Virus record (IMG/VR): IMGVR_UViG_3300046468_000217
Span: 1 to 25,023 of that record
DNA: 25,023 nt
Strand: one strand, 5' to 3'
From: a virus
Taxonomy: Duplodnaviria; Caudoviricetes
Part shown: positions 4,788 to 23,130 of the stretch, piece by piece
How the letters are laid out: each line of letters starts with the position of its first letter
Numbering within the stretch: position 1 is the stretch's first letter
Program-made: the position numbers and the translations under genes
Notes under the pieces: model-generated
What the model was told of the DNA's origin: nothing
What the model saw: only the letters and a program-made list of their open reading frames with translations
The model's database searches: none

Positions 4788-5342
4788 CTATACAGTTATA
4801 ACTAAACTTTTATCAACAGATACTAGTTCTTCAGGCCAAAACAGGAAATCACGCCAGGATTCGTCCGGAATATACAATGTAAACAGTCTTGCGTTACGAT
4901 TTATTTCATGATAGCTGGGTTGGTATGGTATTGAGATGGGTTGGATTAGTTTGTTGGACTTTGAACTGTTACATGGTTTACATGCACTAGCACAATTTTT
5001 CCATGATGTTCTGCCTCCGTGGCTTTTTGGGATAACGTGATCTATTGTTAAATCTGCTTGCCGGTGTTTTGTGCCACAGTACTGACAAGTATAGTTATCT
5101 CTTATAAACATGTTTCGCCTGGTAAATTTTGCTCTCGTTGGTAGCTTATGATAACGATTAAGCATTACAATACTTGGCATTGGCATCACAAAGTTTTCAC
5201 TATGTAAGGGTTTATCCTCATAGCTCTTTACAATTTTTATCTTATCGGAAAAATATGCTTTCACGGCACTCTGCCAACTGATTGTGCTTAGTGGCAACAG
5301 GCTTAACGGCTGTGCATCTGCATTAAGTAATAGTACACTCAT
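4788..5342 (-). CDS. HNH endonuclease (McrA-like, VLLLNA.. family)
   Basis: RDNYTCQYCG...LTIDHVIPKSHGGRTSWKNCASACKPCNSSK: Zn-binding CxxC pairs plus HNH core; N-terminal VLLLNADAQPL. Confidence 0.92.
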   Translation of the reverse strand: MSVLLLNADAQPLSLLPLSTISWQSAVKAYFSDKIKIVKSYEDKPLHSENFVMPMPSIVMLNRYHKLPTRAKFTRRNMFIRDNYTCQYCGTKHRQADLTIDHVIPKSHGGRTSWKNCASACKPCNSSKSNKLIQPISIPYQPSYHEINRNARLFTLYIPDESWRDFLFWPEELVSVDKSLVITV

Positions 5343-15580: not shown

Positions 15581-16427
15581 AAGAGGTGTTGTTTGGCAAG
15601 CTGGTGCTAGTGGAAATTTTATCTGCAGTCAGTTTGTTCCACCAGAAGAAGTCATGTACTTTGAAGAAGGAAACGAATACAAAGTAAAGAATAACTTTAA
15701 ATATTTTTTAAACATCAGCAAAGAAATATTGCCAGAAATGGAAACCATTGCATGTCACCCTTTTCCCACCAAGTGGATACAAGATAATGACATTTATATT
15801 GATGAACTTTTGATGGTTAAGCCTGATTGGTTTAGTGAACTATTGTTGTATGCCAAAAGAATGATGCAGTTTAGAGCATCGCCAAATGATCTAGTTTGGA
15901 TGGTAAAGCAATCATACAAATTAAGTTACAACAAAGAATTAGATTGGCATAATTTTAAAGATGTGCAAGCACTAATAAAAATTTGTGATAGAATAAAACA
16001 AGATACTGGATTAAACACTGGTGACATTAGCCGTCAAAATACCTTGTGTGTATTATACCTGGTGTGGTTAAAGTCTAAGAAACTTAGTGACGATAACGAC
16101 AATTTAAAAGCATTTCTAAGACAAGAACTTATTGACCCTTGTATGAAAGCCGTTGAACGTAACACGCATCTAAACACTGAACCGTATGATAATGCAGTTA
16201 TAGAGTTGGAAGCAACAGGAAAGATAGGCAAGGTTCATAATGTAGATTATGAAGATTTGTTTATTAACTGTAACAGCGTTATTGGTATAGACGTCAATGA
16301 CATAAAAGATTACAGTACCAAGAATGTAGACTTGTTGAATATAATTTGTAAAATTACAGACAGTACTGATCTGTTGACAAGACTAGATTCTTTTAAAGAG
16401 AAACTGAATAAGGCAACTAATGGGTGA
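15564..16427 (+). CDS. Hypothetical protein, weakly sulfotransferase/P-loop-like
   Basis: 287 aa. N-terminal strand plus AGASGNFI loop and late VDYEDLF resemble sulfotransferase-fold motifs. The ORF is well supported; the function is weakly supported. Confidence 0.45.
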   Translation: MTHTFKRGVVWQAGASGNFICSQFVPPEEVMYFEEGNEYKVKNNFKYFLNISKEILPEMETIACHPFPTKWIQDNDIYIDELLMVKPDWFSELLLYAKRMMQFRASPNDLVWMVKQSYKLSYNKELDWHNFKDVQALIKICDRIKQDTGLNTGDISRQNTLCVLYLVWLKSKKLSDDNDNLKAFLRQELIDPCMKAVERNTHLNTEPYDNAVIELEATGKIGKVHNVDYEDLFINCNSVIGIDVNDIKDYSTKNVDLLNIICKITDSTDLLTRLDSFKEKLNKATNG

Positions 16428-16884
16428 TTGGAAATACAAAAGACAGATCGTAGAAAGTCTACCGGAAGACTGCGTGGGATTTGTTTATATAATCACTAAT
16501 ACTATTACAGGCAAAAAATACATTGGCAAAAAACTGGCAAAATTCGCAAAAACAAAATACAAAATGCACACACAAAAAAATGGCAAAAAAGTTAGAAAAA
16601 AGATAAGATCAAAAATAGACTCAGACTGGCAAGAATATTATGGCTCCTCAAAGGCACTAACAGCAGATATAGAAAACTTAGGCAAAGACAAATTTAAAAG
16701 AGAGATATTGTTCTATTGTGCCTCAAAGGCAGAATGCTCATACATTGAAGCAAGAGAACAATTTACACACAGAGTACTTGAAAGTGATGATTACTATAAT
16801 GGTCACATACAAGTTCGTGTTCATGGCTCACATATACTAACAGAACAACTCTTAAACAATCCCACAGACACAAAGTCAAACTAA
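16420..16884 (+). CDS. Stand-alone GIY-YIG nuclease
   Basis: GFVYIITN..TGKKYIGKK, SDWQEYYGSS, FKREIL..C..K.E.SY.E (candidate catalytic Glu), YYN; single domain of 154 aa. Confidence 0.88.
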   Translation: MGDWKYKRQIVESLPEDCVGFVYIITNTITGKKYIGKKLAKFAKTKYKMHTQKNGKKVRKKIRSKIDSDWQEYYGSSKALTADIENLGKDKFKREILFYCASKAECSYIEAREQFTHRVLESDDYYNGHIQVRVHGSHILTEQLLNNPTDTKSN

Positions 16885-16907
16885 TATAGGCAAAGAATGC
16901 TCCGATT

Positions 16908-17218
16908 GGTCGTGATAGCTCGACCCACCTTGAACGCATGGGAACGCATGTTTGGATCTGGTGTAGCAAAGTGTCACTGCGTTGGTTTGACAAACCGAAA
17001 TGATCAAGCTCTTCTGACAATTGAAACTTGAGGGTAGCACAAAGTCGTTGATATGGCAATGTGTGTTCCTGCGTTATTAAGCAGTAAGTAAAAAGGTACC
17101 GCGTAACCGCCTTTTCCTAGCGTTAATTAGGTTTTACTATATCGATGTGTTGACTTTGACGGGAAAAGTCGATTTTGCATTTGGCCTTATCAGGCTAAGT
17201 GTGAATGACAGATCAAGG
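16908..17218 (+). ncRNA. Candidate structured non-coding RNA of unknown family
   Basis: Eight or more back-to-back stems with many G-U pairs valid only on the + strand; 3' TGACAGATCAAGG (17206-17218) pairs with 5' CCTT (16928-31), GATCTG (16955-60) and TCA (16974-76). Visibly more GC-rich than the flanks and without a credible ORF. Confidence 0.65.
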
Positions 17219-17228
17219 AAAAGACATA

Positions 17229-17236
17229 TATAAATA
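17229..17236 (+). promoter_or_regulatory. Putative late promoter TATAAATA
   Basis: Exact T4 late consensus upstream of ORF 17353, but within a very AT-rich tract where chance matches are likely. Confidence 0.45.
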
Positions 17237-17288
17237 CCATATAATAATATATTATAATTACCATATATAGATTAGTAATAATAATCGA

Positions 17289-17327
17289 AATACCGTAGGT
17301 ATTGAAGATTAGATGCCGTAAGGCATC
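17289..17327. repeat. Twin perfect inverted repeats sharing a CCGTA(A)GG core
   Basis: AATACC-GTA-GGTATT (17289-17303) and GATGCC-GTAA-GGCATC (17312-17327). Confidence 0.8.
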
Positions 17328-17352
17328 ACTAATATGACAGCAAAGATATATA

Positions 17353-17793
17353 ATGAACTTCGACATATTCAAAATGAAATTCCTTGAGTGGACTGAGAAT
17401 GTTATTGAAAAGAAAAAAGACGATGGTTTTGCTATCTGTCCGTTTGCCAAAAAGGCACGTCTAGACAATAAAATACAGTTCATTGATTGTACAACAGCTA
17501 CTAGTGAGTTACTTGCATTTGACAAAGAAAAATACGAAATAGGTATTGCTTGGTTGGGTGATTCAGTAAACATGGACATCATTGATGAAGTTCTAGAGCT
17601 TTATAAAGCAGAAAACCCGGACCTATTATACTTTACAAGTACAACAGATTCAGGCTACTTTGCTAAGAACTTTACTAATTGTGTGTTTATTCAACTAAGG
17701 GGTGATATAGATAATCGAAGGCAACAGTTACATAAAACCAAATACTATGACAGTTGGCCAGAGCATTACTATAAAATAATAACCGGACACTAA
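17353..17793 (+). CDS. Hypothetical protein, DUF1415-like
   Basis: W..NVIE......AICPFAKKA N-terminal motif resembles the CPFA motif of DUF1415 proteins. Confidence 0.55.
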   Translation: MNFDIFKMKFLEWTENVIEKKKDDGFAICPFAKKARLDNKIQFIDCTTATSELLAFDKEKYEIGIAWLGDSVNMDIIDEVLELYKAENPDLLYFTSTTDSGYFAKNFTNCVFIQLRGDIDNRRQQLHKTKYYDSWPEHYYKIITGH

Positions 17794-18007
17794 CTGCGTT
17801 TATTCATTTCCTCTGTACGCTTATTCATTCTCTCGATCAACATCTGAACAGCCGGCAAAGGCATAGTCATGATTTCATGATAACCAACGGCACCACCACT
17901 ATATAATATTATGTCTATGTAGCTTTCTTCAACGGCTTTTCTTTGCTCGTCATAGCGTTCTACAATTTGTTGTATCTCCAACGGCTGACTAGTGGATATC
18001 AACCTAC
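17790..18007 (-). CDS. Small baseplate-hub/tail assembly ORF (gp51-like), possibly reached by -1 frameshift
   Basis: Helical ORF with SGGAVGYHEIMTMP motif in the -1 frame overlapping the end of the gp26-like gene. No convincing own RBS/start; the track start 18047 lies inside the upstream gene. Confidence 0.55.
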
Positions 18008-18908: not shown

Positions 18909-21002
18909 ATGGATATAGGACAAATTGCTAGTATATTTTCTTCTTTGCCCAGCTGGGTTTCAGAAGATACTATGCAAGGTATATTGAGAAGTCAACGGGG
19001 TAACGTTGATGCCAATATAGCCAAGATCAATAAGATTTCTGCTAAATGGGGTTTAGATCCTATTGAACAACAAGTCGATAATATTATTGACAACAAACAA
19101 AAAGGTATGCAGGCTACTAAACGTATGTCTGCACAGACTAGATCCGCAGTAAATGATCTAATGCGAGAAAACGATCCTATTCAGGGTTTGGGTGCTGGTA
19201 TTAGTTTAGTTGGTGGTGCTCTTGGTAATGTCGGAAAAGGAGTTGACTTTCTAACAGGCAACAAATTAGGTAAATTTGCCAAGAAGGCAGTGGGTAAAGA
19301 TTTATTGAAAGCAGGAAACAAAGGGCTAGGTGCTCTGGCAGGAGTCGCCGGATTTACTGCTGGTACAAGTGCTTTCATAATGAGTTTGGAACGAGATATT
19401 CGTGCAATGGTTGAAATGAGTGTATTCACTAATACAGCTGAAATGCAATATATTAAAGAAGCTGCCAATGGTGTTGGTATGAGTATGGTGGAAGCCACAA
19501 AGATGTTACAAGGCAGTAGTGCAATGGTAGCCTATGTCGGAGACGGTGATGTAGCATCAGGTACACTAAAGTTTTTAAAGTTTGCAAGTAAAATAGAAAA
19601 AATGAACACCGAAGGTAAAGGTGGTGTTAGTGACTTTGGATTGGGTGTAGATCAACTTGCACAACGAATGGCACAGGAAACAGCATTGTTATATGATCTA
19701 AATGAATTGACAGAAACAGACTTAACTGCCAAGGGACAAGCATATAAAAACTTTGAAACAATGGAAGGTATGATGACCTATATGGCAGACTGGACCGGCG
19801 TTAGAAAGAGTGAATTACTTGACCAGGGTATGCAAGCTGATGCAATGATAGATTATAGAATGGCTCTAAAACAAAACAAAGCACATTTGGAAGAGGCCTA
19901 TGGTGAAGGCACTATGATGGCAGTCAATAATGGCAGAAGAAGATTAGCAATGCAACTAGCAATGGTTCCAGAACTACAAACAGAATTATTGAGAGCTGTT
20001 GACAAAACAGTAAACGATATACAATATAATGGAGGCGATTCAGTAATCTCCTTTAACCAAGAATTTTTAGATAAGATGAATGTCCTGGATCCAAACTTAG
20101 CAAACAGAATGACAAAACTTGTTAGTGATATAAGCACAGGACAATTTAAAGATGATCCAATACAACAGGATATAGAAGTTAAGAGACTATTAAACGATAT
20201 CAGTAATGCAAAAACTGTAGATGGTCCTGGAGCAATGTTTAAAGAAGTTAACTCATTAATTGCTACAACTAACCTAGTTCCTAATCTTGATATGTCAGAT
20301 GCTGAACAAAGAGAAAAAGCGGCAAGTGTAAAAGAGAAAGCTGAACAAGGCGATGTAATGGTTGATTCAGTAGACAATACTCGTAAGGCACTACGTCAAG
20401 GTGTTACTGCTCTTGCGCCGTCAACGGAAACAGTAGTTAATTTATTTGGTGACTTGACAGGCGGTGTGCAACTATTTGGTAAAGCAGTATCCTATATTCC
20501 AGGATTTGAACAGATGCAAAGTGTTCTGGGAGAAGATGCAATTGGAAAGTATCGTGTTGATCCAAGTACAACATATGGTCCACAGATGAGTGATTTTGTT
20601 GATCCTCCTACAGTACCAAAACGAAAAAGACAAAGACGTAGAGGTGATAGGTCAGGCGTAACAGGACCTAAAGTAGTTGTACCAGTTACTGGTACTGATC
20701 CAAAAGAAGAAAATACTTTCCTTGGAAATATATGGGATAAAATTACAGGAAAGTCTGATGAGAAAGAAGAAGCTCGAATAGCAGGATTAGAGACACCAGT
20801 TCTAACAGCAAAACTTGAAGAAGTCAAGAAGAAAATTGCAGAACTAGAGGTATTAAAGAAATCAGCTAAAAATCGTAAAACACGTGGTGACTTTAATAGA
20901 AAATTACAATCTCATGAAAGAGCAATGGCTAGAATATTGGCTGACATAGAAGCAAAGACAAAACAATCAACACTCTCGGAGACAGTAGAAAATGGCAAGT
21001 AG
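18909..21002 (+). CDS. Tape-measure-like protein 1
   Basis: 697 aa, helical, Ala/Gly/Met-rich, with a hydrophobic Gly/Ala stretch; next to the gp26-like gene; shares motifs with the following ORF. Confidence 0.55.
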   Translation: MDIGQIASIFSSLPSWVSEDTMQGILRSQRGNVDANIAKINKISAKWGLDPIEQQVDNIIDNKQKGMQATKRMSAQTRSAVNDLMRENDPIQGLGAGISLVGGALGNVGKGVDFLTGNKLGKFAKKAVGKDLLKAGNKGLGALAGVAGFTAGTSAFIMSLERDIRAMVEMSVFTNTAEMQYIKEAANGVGMSMVEATKMLQGSSAMVAYVGDGDVASGTLKFLKFASKIEKMNTEGKGGVSDFGLGVDQLAQRMAQETALLYDLNELTETDLTAKGQAYKNFETMEGMMTYMADWTGVRKSELLDQGMQADAMIDYRMALKQNKAHLEEAYGEGTMMAVNNGRRRLAMQLAMVPELQTELLRAVDKTVNDIQYNGGDSVISFNQEFLDKMNVLDPNLANRMTKLVSDISTGQFKDDPIQQDIEVKRLLNDISNAKTVDGPGAMFKEVNSLIATTNLVPNLDMSDAEQREKAASVKEKAEQGDVMVDSVDNTRKALRQGVTALAPSTETVVNLFGDLTGGVQLFGKAVSYIPGFEQMQSVLGEDAIGKYRVDPSTTYGPQMSDFVDPPTVPKRKRQRRRGDRSGVTGPKVVVPVTGTDPKEENTFLGNIWDKITGKSDEKEEARIAGLETPVLTAKLEEVKKKIAELEVLKKSAKNRKTRGDFNRKLQSHERAMARILADIEAKTKQSTLSETVENGK

Positions 21003-23130
21003 TTATAATATAAATTTACCTGACGGATCAAGTCTACCAGTTCCAGCCTGGGCAACAGAACAAACGCTACAATCGGTAGCACAGATGCTGAATAAGAACA
21101 ACTTATCAGTAGATATTATCACTGATCTAATGCAAGAAAATAATATGGACGTGGGTGATGTTGCGGCCAAGATGCAACAACTAGCTGATGTAGATAAAGC
21201 AGAACTTCAACAAAGACTTTCAGAAGCAAAGAAACAAGGCAAGAACTTCGGCGCCAAACTAACAGGTGTATTGGACAAGTTTAACAATACAGAAAAACCA
21301 CTGAGCAGTTTAGTTGACATGGCTACTGGATTAGGAAAAGAGATAAAAGAAGGTTCAAGTAGTTTTGGTAAAGATAAAGAAAAAATAAGTAAAGGCTCTA
21401 GTGTAATGAGTAGTGTCATGGCCAAGCTGGGCAAGGGCATGGGAGTAGCAGGTGATATTGCTGTTGTATATGCTGGTTTCATGGCAGGTAAAGCAGAAGA
21501 ATTTGCCAAAGCACAACAGAATATGATTGACAGTGGTGCTATCTTCTTTGAAAATGCGGCGGCCTTTAATGCACTACAAACACAGGCAAGAGATGCAGGT
21601 ATTGGTTATGAGAAGTTTACAACTATTGTGGGTAATTTCGGAAGTGCAATGGTTGGATTAGGTGGCAACGTTAGTAATGGTGCTGTAGAGTTTGCCGTTC
21701 TAGCAGAAAAACTAAATGATGCAAGTGACCAGTTCGGAGACTTTGGTATGACAAGTGAAAACCTAGCAGAAGGTTTTGCTGAGTTTATTGAAACACAACG
21801 TATGGCTGGAAATATAGATAGAACACAAGTAGGATACGGAGACAAGTTAGTCAAAGCATATCAAGAACTATTAATTGAAACAGGTTCATATGCAAGTGCT
21901 ACAGCGTTCACAAGAAAACAGATGTTAGAATCATATACAGAGGCTATGAGTGCTCCAGTATTTGCAGGTACAATGAAAATACTGGACAAACTTGGAGAGA
22001 CTGGTACTAAAGAAGCGGCTCAACAAATACAAACACAATTAACACTACTCAACAAAGCCGGCGTTACAGATATAGCAGGACCGTTACTTGGTGCTTTTGA
22101 ACAAGCATTAAGTTCATCAACAGGTGATTTACAAAGTTTTGATATTACTAGTTATCTAGCAGAAAATGGTGGTGAACAATTAATTGCAACACTTGATAAT
22201 GTAAACTCTACCCTACTAACTGATATCAATACAGCAATCCGTAATGGAGAAAAGATATCTGGAGATATGTTGCAGGACTTGGTTGCGGCATATGAAACTG
22301 TTAAGCCTGGAATGGTTATTCCTGCTGGTGCAACAGATGGCCTAATGGGTTATATGAAACGAACTCAAAACCAAATGGAAGAGTTCCGTTTAAAAACTAA
22401 AGCAGTATCTGAGATGTCAGAAGAAGAACGTGCAGGTCTTAAAGACAAACATAAGAAAGATTTAGAAGGTGCAGGAAAGTTAACTAAAGTAATGAACGAT
22501 GTTACTGAAGGATACCTAAAGGCAATGGATGCTCTAACACTTCCAATGGACACCTTTGGTACAGTTCTAGATGGAATAACAACTGGAATGCAAAAGGTCA
22601 CTGGTAATATGGTTGAAGGCCTAAGTACAGAGGGTAAAGGTTTTATGCCTGGATATGAAGGATACCATAAAGAAGGTGCTGCGATGCGTGGTGAGAACGC
22701 ACTAGGCAAGGCACGAAAAATAATGATTGACGGAAAGCCAAATGGATTGAGATCCGGAGGTCCTATCGGAGCAGGATCCATGGCTCTTGTGGGAGAAGAA
22801 GGTCCGGAAATATTACAAATGGGTGATATGGGAGGAATGATCTTCCCTAACAGTACATTAAATAATCTGGTTGACATGTATAAAGAAAGCATGTATAATG
22901 GAGATAATAAAGCTATGGTATCTCCTAATAGTAATGATCCGACTCAATTGAGTGCAGACACACTAACGCAGGGTTATGGTGATGGCGGTTACGGTGAAGA
23001 AGACACAGAGCTACAGGATATTCTAAGGATGAAAGAAGAAACAGTAAAAACTCTTAGAAGCCTGGACGGTGTATTAGCCGGTATGTTTGCTCTAAGCGAA
23101 CAGCGAACCGTTGCTTCTGAGATGTCTTAA
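20992..23130 (+). CDS. Tape-measure-like protein 2
   Basis: 712 aa helical protein; C-terminal GGPI..G..ALVGEEGPEIL....G.I.PN motif typical of tape measure proteins. Confidence 0.68.
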   Translation: MASSYNINLPDGSSLPVPAWATEQTLQSVAQMLNKNNLSVDIITDLMQENNMDVGDVAAKMQQLADVDKAELQQRLSEAKKQGKNFGAKLTGVLDKFNNTEKPLSSLVDMATGLGKEIKEGSSSFGKDKEKISKGSSVMSSVMAKLGKGMGVAGDIAVVYAGFMAGKAEEFAKAQQNMIDSGAIFFENAAAFNALQTQARDAGIGYEKFTTIVGNFGSAMVGLGGNVSNGAVEFAVLAEKLNDASDQFGDFGMTSENLAEGFAEFIETQRMAGNIDRTQVGYGDKLVKAYQELLIETGSYASATAFTRKQMLESYTEAMSAPVFAGTMKILDKLGETGTKEAAQQIQTQLTLLNKAGVTDIAGPLLGAFEQALSSSTGDLQSFDITSYLAENGGEQLIATLDNVNSTLLTDINTAIRNGEKISGDMLQDLVAAYETVKPGMVIPAGATDGLMGYMKRTQNQMEEFRLKTKAVSEMSEEERAGLKDKHKKDLEGAGKLTKVMNDVTEGYLKAMDALTLPMDTFGTVLDGITTGMQKVTGNMVEGLSTEGKGFMPGYEGYHKEGAAMRGENALGKARKIMIDGKPNGLRSGGPIGAGSMALVGEEGPEILQMGDMGGMIFPNSTLNNLVDMYKESMYNGDNKAMVSPNSNDPTQLSADTLTQGYGDGGYGEEDTELQDILRMKEETVKTLRSLDGVLAGMFALSEQRTVASEMS

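Follow-up and report, generated by a model that had tools for sequence, protein, structure and literature searches.

We identified a conserved element of roughly 340 bases behind the gp46 operon of a marine T4-like phage, the core of which recurs with different 5′ domains in other uncultured phages and in small islands of bacterial genomes. Judged from sequence comparisons, the element probably serves as a self-anchoring R-loop RNA primer at a phage replication origin, working like ColE1 RNA II. It was found in a 25,023-nt stretch of DNA, all of which was analysed (hereafter the window), whose source is a fragment of a T4-like phage with the gene order baseplate genes, gp55-like sigma factor, gp47/gp46 and a SegE-like GIY-YIG nuclease gene, then a 468-nt gap (16885-17352) followed by a 146-aa ORF, a convergent baseplate hub gene and a portal gene. 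This is the longest real gene-free gap in the window, as a preliminary description had noted; a larger one on the gap listing falls inside the open-ended ORF 1-1044 and was discounted. The limits given there for the element, 16908-17218, proved too narrow: from a start at about 16881, the element runs through a repeat whose end is at 17223 and on into a tail that extends to about 17327 (Table 1). At least half of the words from 16300-17900 occurred in 15 of 24 listed sequencing runs, whose records read seawater, marine or viral metagenome. Elsewhere in the window, an HNH endonuclease gene (4788-5342) was inserted between baseplate genes, and the segment between the baseplate hub and portal genes (18909-23130) contained two long ORFs (697 and 712 aa) that had no Pfam or PHROG matches.

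Table 1. Positions in the window of the element's parts and of the gene preceding it
Feature	Position	Strand	Evidence or remark
Stand-alone SegE-like GIY-YIG nuclease gene, 154 aa	16420-16884	+	PF19835, E 1.9e-32; phrog_447
Conserved 5′ motif CTAANNNAGGC	16881-16891	+	17/31 homologs
Variable 5′ domain	16901-16998	+	Helices 1-3 and 6 covary; no Rfam match
Conserved core	17004-17145	+	Mutual information, covariation, alignment with class A, class B and island elements
Hairpin holding repeat copy 1	17150-17172	+	Stem as drawn 62% paired in homolog columns
Repeat copy 1, GGAAAAG	17162-17168	+	In hairpin 17150-17172; proposed anchor
Long hairpin between repeats	17174-17205	+	97% paired, 5/13 pairs with double changes
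Repeat copy 2, GGAAAAG	17217-17223	+	55 nt after copy 1; proposed DNA landing site
AT-rich tract, possible unwinding element	17215-17290	.	86% AT in the window's AT-richest 70-mer, beginning at 17215
Two mini-hairpins, loops C(GTA)G and C(GTAA)G	17289-17303, 17312-17327	+	Sole such hairpins (stem of at least 5 bp) in the window

Evidence for the structure is comparative. Homologs were gathered by pattern and neighbour searches; a profile matched 167 of the 236 sequences (58 distinct and full-length), and we aligned 31 representatives that shared less than 93% identity (mean 64%). The 85-pair structure obtained from RNAalifold, mutual information and inspection of this 31-sequence alignment was 91.9% paired over the 31 homologs, with double changes in 54 pairs. 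None of 500 shuffles reached the observed pairing and slid controls gave 35-41%, these controls leaning toward the structure because it was derived from the same alignment; the homologs are related, so that p-values overstate significance. Many helices were 95-100% paired with 10-15 double changes per pair. Individual stems were scored in 29 homologs, leaving out the window and L093, a row misaligned at its 5′ end, which was kept in the covariation and repeat statistics. The region had been called highly structured in the preliminary description. Single-sequence folding was at chance level: against dinucleotide shuffles, z was -0.75 on the + strand and +0.41 on the - strand for 16880-17240, significant on neither, and -1.3 for 16908-17218, with only the hairpin pair 17150-17205 standing out (z -5.3). 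In contrast, comparative covariation shows a real structure. The earlier strand argument also held in part: at paired columns, 306 G-U cells against 35 A-C cells indicate a + single strand, a bias that fits RNA and single-stranded DNA alike.

The stems proposed earlier can all be drawn where they were placed, and several were well conserved in the 29 homologs, including GGTCG/CGACC (92% paired) and the 14-bp stem at 17174-17205 (95%). Covariation supports the GCAC/GTGT-GTCG/TGGC arm, the AAGG/CCTT stem and CCTAG/TTAGG. TTGGTTT/AAACCGA was 85% paired and is better drawn as a 5-bp stem with the loop TGACA; CTGC/GCAG was 96% paired, is nearly invariant, and its outer bases are part of covarying helices. 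Other stems were replaced: GCTCT/AGGGT (75% paired) gave way to TCAAG/CTTGA (100% paired, with double changes), and instead of the AGTAAAA/TTTTACT register (74%) covariation prefers AGTA 17083-86 with TACT 17135-38. GCG/CGC (78% paired) was unsupported, and so was a single closed multibranch domain, the two parts of its closing 5′-3′ helix being paired in 47% (CCTT/AAGG) and 39% (GATCTG/CAGATC). In the resulting fold, the 5′ domain consists of a hairpin (16908-25), a helix CACC 16926-29/GGTG 16960-63 around the hairpin 16932-53, and a two-hairpin module that was lost as a block in 4 of the 31 homologs; a candidate loop-loop pairing, GTCA 16973-76/TGAC 16988-91, was 94% paired and invariant. 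The core comprises the bulged TCAAG/CTTGA hairpin (17004-31), an arm (17032-70), the helix 17083-86/17135-38, a stem (17093-17113) with a conserved 11-nt loop, and a hairpin (17116-31). It also contains a pseudoknot, absent from the preliminary description, in which loop 17048-54 pairs with 17139-45 and 6 of 6 pairs have double changes. The 5′ motif CTAANNNAGGC was retained where the element sits ~180 nt beyond the stop codon and could possibly be a promoter or processing site. AGGC motifs resembling the 5′ end of the element were also observed upstream of a conserved 340-aa gene, presumably gp32-like, in G002 (C1 105327 and 105396), and likewise in G001 and G003.

A search of Rfam gave no matches for the element at the gathering cut-off. 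In line with the preliminary description, no tRNA or tmRNA was called: ARAGORN predicted 0 genes, and the Rfam tRNA score (21.6 bits) was below the cut-off of 29. That weak tRNA-like score lies at 16957-17025, where the loop TTGACAA carries an anticodon-like GAC triplet; the bacterial islands integrate at tRNA-Val(GAC), and the resemblance is probably due to chance. Nevertheless, only part of the former view of an undescribed large phage ncRNA stands. The element is large, structured, on the + strand, non-coding and without an Rfam family, but its 3′ two-thirds are homologous to the uncatalogued part of elements bearing the Polynucleobacter-1 motif (RF01718). This motif was found right after the GIY-YIG gene in 12 of 20 scanned loci (of 80 GIY-YIG homolog loci). 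The window itself lacks RF01718, staying below the membership score of 37 bits with no match up to E 10, and a profile of RF01718-bearing elements matched its 3′ part (E 6.5e-6). In the locus L088, the RF01718 domain was fused to a window-type middle and 3′ end, this being the only non-tRNA Rfam match among 18 window-type loci scanned. The core could be aligned across phage classes, which are ~49% identical, and islands. The element is thus modular, with several 5′ domains on one core, and the window copy belongs to a larger RF01718-containing element, with the core, the pseudoknot, the repeat-hairpin-repeat module and the position after the gp46 operon in common. Besides the 5′ domain of the window, the core was seen joined to at least three more (L099-L101, L081-L086, L088), Polynucleobacter-1 among them. 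The motif was reported by Weinberg et al. 2010 (PMC2864571), whose accessible text states no function for it. In the literature searched, which included few subscription papers, we found no description of the element, and Polynucleobacter-1 was named in that paper alone. The 29-151-nt candidates of Fremin et al. 2023 (PMC10690425), from the same database, may include pieces of the element.

The nearest upstream gene at 145 core loci, some contigs being counted more than once, encoded a GIY-YIG nuclease in 111 cases, a RusA-like protein in 24, another protein in 6 and an unknown one in 4. Because the GIY-YIG and RusA-like genes never co-occurred in four large contigs (mutually exclusive in 4 of 4), a predicted role as the branch- or junction-resolving enzyme of the recombination operon is suggested for the GIY-YIG protein. 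The slot after gp46 was occupied by GIY-YIG in the window, by a RusA-like gene (the upstream ORF of L087) or by endonuclease VII in a cultured Vibrio relative (L303:16188-16688). A PDB sequence search with the GIY-YIG nuclease gave zero matches, and the PHROG label 'NAD synthetase' on this minimal GIY-YIG protein looks wrong. The proximity of the two genes could be taken to mean that the element is a guide RNA for the nuclease, in an OMEGA/HEARO-like ribonucleoprotein, or that it targets its own locus for nicking by a phage nuclease. We consider this very unlikely. In the window, the start of the element does coincide with the stop codon of the nuclease gene, GIY-YIG is its usual neighbour, and a short variable segment lies within a conserved scaffold. 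However, the obligate linkage to one nuclease family that characterizes OMEGA/HEARO systems was not seen: 24 of 145 loci have an unrelated RusA-like gene in the upstream place, two elements occur in G001, a genome scored 100% complete in which tblastn found no match to this GIY-YIG, the islands examined have no such nuclease beside the core, and the sole matching target found was the element's own locus. GIY-YIG is therefore a usual and replaceable neighbour of the element and no required partner.

A pair of direct repeats flanks the long hairpin (Table 1). The repeated word is highly variable (25 distinct words across 31 homologs), and within each homolog the two copies match: the longest own-pair match averaged 7.2 nt (5-9, 31 of 31) compared to 4.15 across homologs, a value reached in none of 2000 permutations. 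Among ordered pairs of close relatives, the own match beat the other's in 81 cases versus 8, with 11 ties. The repeat pair was also present in 64 of 79 other GIY-YIG loci (classes A-C), 8 of the 15 misses being sequences cut short, and in 8 island elements; in the island L330, the core was recognized by profile and repeats were not located. An intramolecular partner for the repeat was considered as well and rejected as chance, its complement occurring in 1 of 31 homologs only (the window, CTTTTCC 17111-17117). We also observed that L108 lacks the hairpin and second repeat found in the near-identical L109 and L110, which may be a natural deletion or an assembly artefact.

The ends of the repeats show a polarity. 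At the first 3′ difference, copy 1 had G where copy 2 had A, or T where copy 2 had C, in 38 of 68 distinct pairs, compared with 44 of 284 at positions further out; 6 pairs showed the reverse (class D, 13 versus 2 reverse; classes A-C, 24 versus 0). These counts come from related sequences and not from independent events. An ACTC/ATCT difference 5′ of class A-C repeats is a product of the chosen anchors and was not counted. The polarity favours base pairing between copy 1 as + strand and copy 2 as - strand, a pairing that would be expected to tolerate just such differences. Two observations count against a primer here: a 7-9 bp hybrid is weak unless a protein helps, and the first 3′ difference in islands favours the reverse polarity (4 versus 1 of 8). 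In 7 of 8 island elements, the base 5′ of the repeat, which is an anchored position, was G against A. The same wobble polarity is predicted if a nicked or nascent - strand jumps from copy 2 to copy 1, by primer translocation or target-primed reverse transcription, because this needs the same base pairs. We give such a jump hardly any credence, as a PF00078 reverse transcriptase was found in none of five related phage records, two of them scored complete, and the hairpin between the repeats is kept in 31 of 31 aligned homologs.

Downstream of the repeats, the AT-richness of the tail was outstanding (top 0.3%) in the window and G004 only, and the corresponding regions of G001-G003 ranked at 8-19% of 70-mers. 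All 30 homolog tails long enough to score had a G(N)NA-loop hairpin, mostly C-G closed. The common tail loop GCGTTAGC is the mini-hairpin of St-1/alpha3 primase origins (match to PMC13037366); such mini-hairpins are described there as far stabler as DNA than as RNA, and as occurring at G4, St-1/alpha3 and ssiA priming sites and at N4 promoters. Those in the window likely fold as single-stranded DNA. The pseudoknot, the co-changing repeats and the tail, all missed in the preliminary description, suggest a replication function in cis more than a free-standing ncRNA. In the primer reading, the element would be transcribed on the + strand and would then fold, with copy 1 displayed in a loop from which it would pair with the template strand at copy 2. 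A persistent RNA-DNA hybrid seeded in this way would run into the AT-rich tract. The RNA, either cut by RNase H or terminated there, would supply the end that primes leading-strand synthesis, and the displaced + strand would fold its mini-hairpins and allow helicase/primase to enter.

The exchange of the core for replication genes in bacterial islands speaks most strongly for a replication role. A genome scan yielded 7 contigs, 6 of them bearing the core; L295 was rejected as a chance pattern match. In L294, the core lies in a ~7.9-kb island between tRNA-Val(GAC) and its 30-bp copy, in the order integrase, three small unknown genes, core and TerS-like gene. Among 301 sampled genomes of the family Halieaceae, the core was found in 8 and the ~98-aa gene of the island in 11, in 10 of which tRNA-Val(GAC) was beside the island. 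The ~98-aa gene was followed by the core in 7 of the 11 islands, at most 6 of these being independent cases since the element is 100% identical in the islands of G006 and G010, by primase and DUF5906 helicase-like genes in 2, by a Rep_trans-like ORF in 1 (ESM feature score 0.96 with low recognition, a lead) and by a truncated remnant in 1. No primase or Rep families were found among the scanned ORFs of RNA-bearing islands, suggesting that these small tRNA-integrated islands likely use the core instead of replication genes of their own; island ORFs of ~200 and ~140 aa that belong to no family could hide an initiator. In a sample of the family Rhodobacteraceae, only the query genome matched (1 of 301), and the island-type motif gave 0 matches in viral contigs. 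Two properties of the islands count against the primer reading: their repeats are 75-88 nt apart, and no mini-hairpin tail was seen in the island sequences inspected. As to cargo, tandem alkaline phosphatase genes were present in two RNA-bearing islands (L294:987-5264; L332:5636-9066), and Cus-type metal efflux genes follow in L330 and DUF499/DUF1156 genes in L331.

The islands bear on three further alternatives. One is a role in transcription or packaging, in which an R-loop would switch on the neighbouring late promoter, terminate the transcript of the gp55-gp46 operon, or mark the packaging start by the small terminase gene of the islands. The sequence ATAAATA, which we take to be the T4 late-promoter consensus, occurs at 17230-36, is mostly intergenic in 3 of 4 related contigs, and is probably the late promoter of the next gene. 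In 21 of 30 tails it lay no more than 60 nt from the end of the element, and a TerS-like ORF follows the core in several islands, as this alternative would have it. However, ATAAATA was missing from the other 9 tails, and islands with primase-helicase genes keep their TerS gene too, so that the element replaces replication genes and not packaging genes; we therefore regard such a role as quite unlikely. The second alternative, a trans-acting ribozyme or scaffold RNA similar to GOLLD, ROOL or OLE, with the repeats as a by-product of, for example, template switching across the hairpin, would be in keeping with the size, the pseudoknots, the invariant unpaired motifs and the swappable 5′ domains. 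It appears highly improbable, because the repeats hold their register and co-change across ~49%-identity classes and islands, the island slot pattern would be left unexplained, and Rfam ribozyme models gave no matches.

The third is an origin made of DNA only, whose + strand folds when single-stranded and whose repeats are protein-bound iterons or a DNA-DNA strand-exchange pair, with no need for an RNA. The excess of G-U over A-C fits any + single strand, the island slot speaks for an origin and not for an RNA, the tail hairpins are of the DNA type, and direct repeats are present in T4 oriE (PMC3016281). On the other hand, the loops in the body of the element are not of the C(GNA)G type seen in its tail, and the single-base co-changes in close relatives and the phage wobble polarity suit base pairing rather than protein binding. 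Folds such as this one, of 300 nt with multiple junctions, a covarying pseudoknot and invariant loops, are typical of RNA. A DNA-only origin is thus unlikely.

Several searches for direct signs of transcription or initiation were also made in connection with the proposed primer. Counting against it, a sigma-70 promoter scan gave 6 sites versus 4.5 +/- 2.3 expected by chance; a terminator scan gave none. Contigs from 4 of the 6 RNA runs in which part of 16300-17900 occurs, which show neither strand, ends nor level and so are neutral as to a transcript, were scattered across the whole 15 kb; their depth in the bin 17016-17516 was 0, 0, 0.51 and 0.18 in the 4 RNA runs, and one contig spans 16633-16981. 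In four large contigs, the skew of GC and TA measured at four-fold sites was explained by gene strand, with no replication-type switch at the element, a weak test given that T4-type late replication is recombination-dependent (PMC3016281). The presence of two elements in G001 counts against the primer reading as well. In this 382-kb phage, a class C element occupies the usual site and a window-type core lies elsewhere amid small genes (C1:25789-26021 and 200191-200617, both on the - strand). The closest cultured relatives by gp55 were jumbo phages at less than 50% identity, three of whose 357 records were examined (Paride, Phosso and Vibrio 2.275.O). Paride and Phosso have the gene order of the window and a 1-1.5-kb poorly coding gap at the matching site; these syntenic gaps contain hairpins (L301:16860-18374 in Pseudomonas phage Paride, L302:19586-20987 in Sinorhizobium phage Phosso), and in Phosso a ribonuclease HI gene directly follows. 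Four nucleotide profiles of the element classes gave zero matches at E 1 in the three phages, and blastn of the element against 50,697 GenBank phage records gave none.

A broader idea, which we put forward tentatively and as less than an even bet, is that of a portable, RNA-programmed origin: interchangeable 5′ domains would sit on a pseudoknotted scaffold whose variable 7-9-base guide opens its own DNA, and marine phage satellites may have captured this scaffold in place of primase-helicase genes, with the RNA alone as initiator. Replication origins of large T4-like aquatic phages are hard to find from sequence, and the element points to a candidate that many uncultured phages have at one syntenic site. 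The function-less Polynucleobacter-1 motif would find its place among the swappable 5′ domains of a larger RNA, and the replication of some marine satellites without replication genes would be explained. The matched repeats make the primer idea directly testable; if true, it would provide a natural, sequence-programmable self-priming RNA beyond ColE1 RNA II.

In ColE1, RNA II is anchored through a G-rich loop. It forms a persistent hybrid with its template (PMC5043065), and the likeness to our element is a long folded non-coding transcript, here putative, with proposed template re-pairing and priming and no encoded initiator (PMC5043065). However, the element has no sequence or Rfam relation to RNA I or RNA II, occurs in phages and islands, and has a freely varying 7-9-nt repeat pair as its anchor; no antisense RNA I was seen. 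T4 oriF and oriG use a transcript, an R-loop and an AT-rich unwinding element (PMC3016281), and our element, also in a T4-like phage, would similarly combine a transcript with a following AT-rich tract. The T4 origins differ in needing only ~100 bp and in having a sequence-independent R-loop, compared with the conserved 340-nt pseudoknotted scaffold and matched repeat pair found here. Polynucleobacter-1 shares the genomic slot after the GIY-YIG gene and is followed on its 3′ side by sequence homologous to the window core; in contrast, the window bears another 5′ domain of ~100 nt, and the 141-nt RF01718 model excludes the core, the repeats and the tail. Finally, some marine satellites have no known replication gene (Eppley et al., PMC9618062). 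The islands resemble these PICI-like satellites, or VEIMEs, in having an integrase, a small terminase and, in some members, primase-helicase genes; the words 'non-coding' and 'noncoding' do not appear in the main text of that paper (PMC9618062), whereas in the islands described here an RNA-like core occupies the replication slot.
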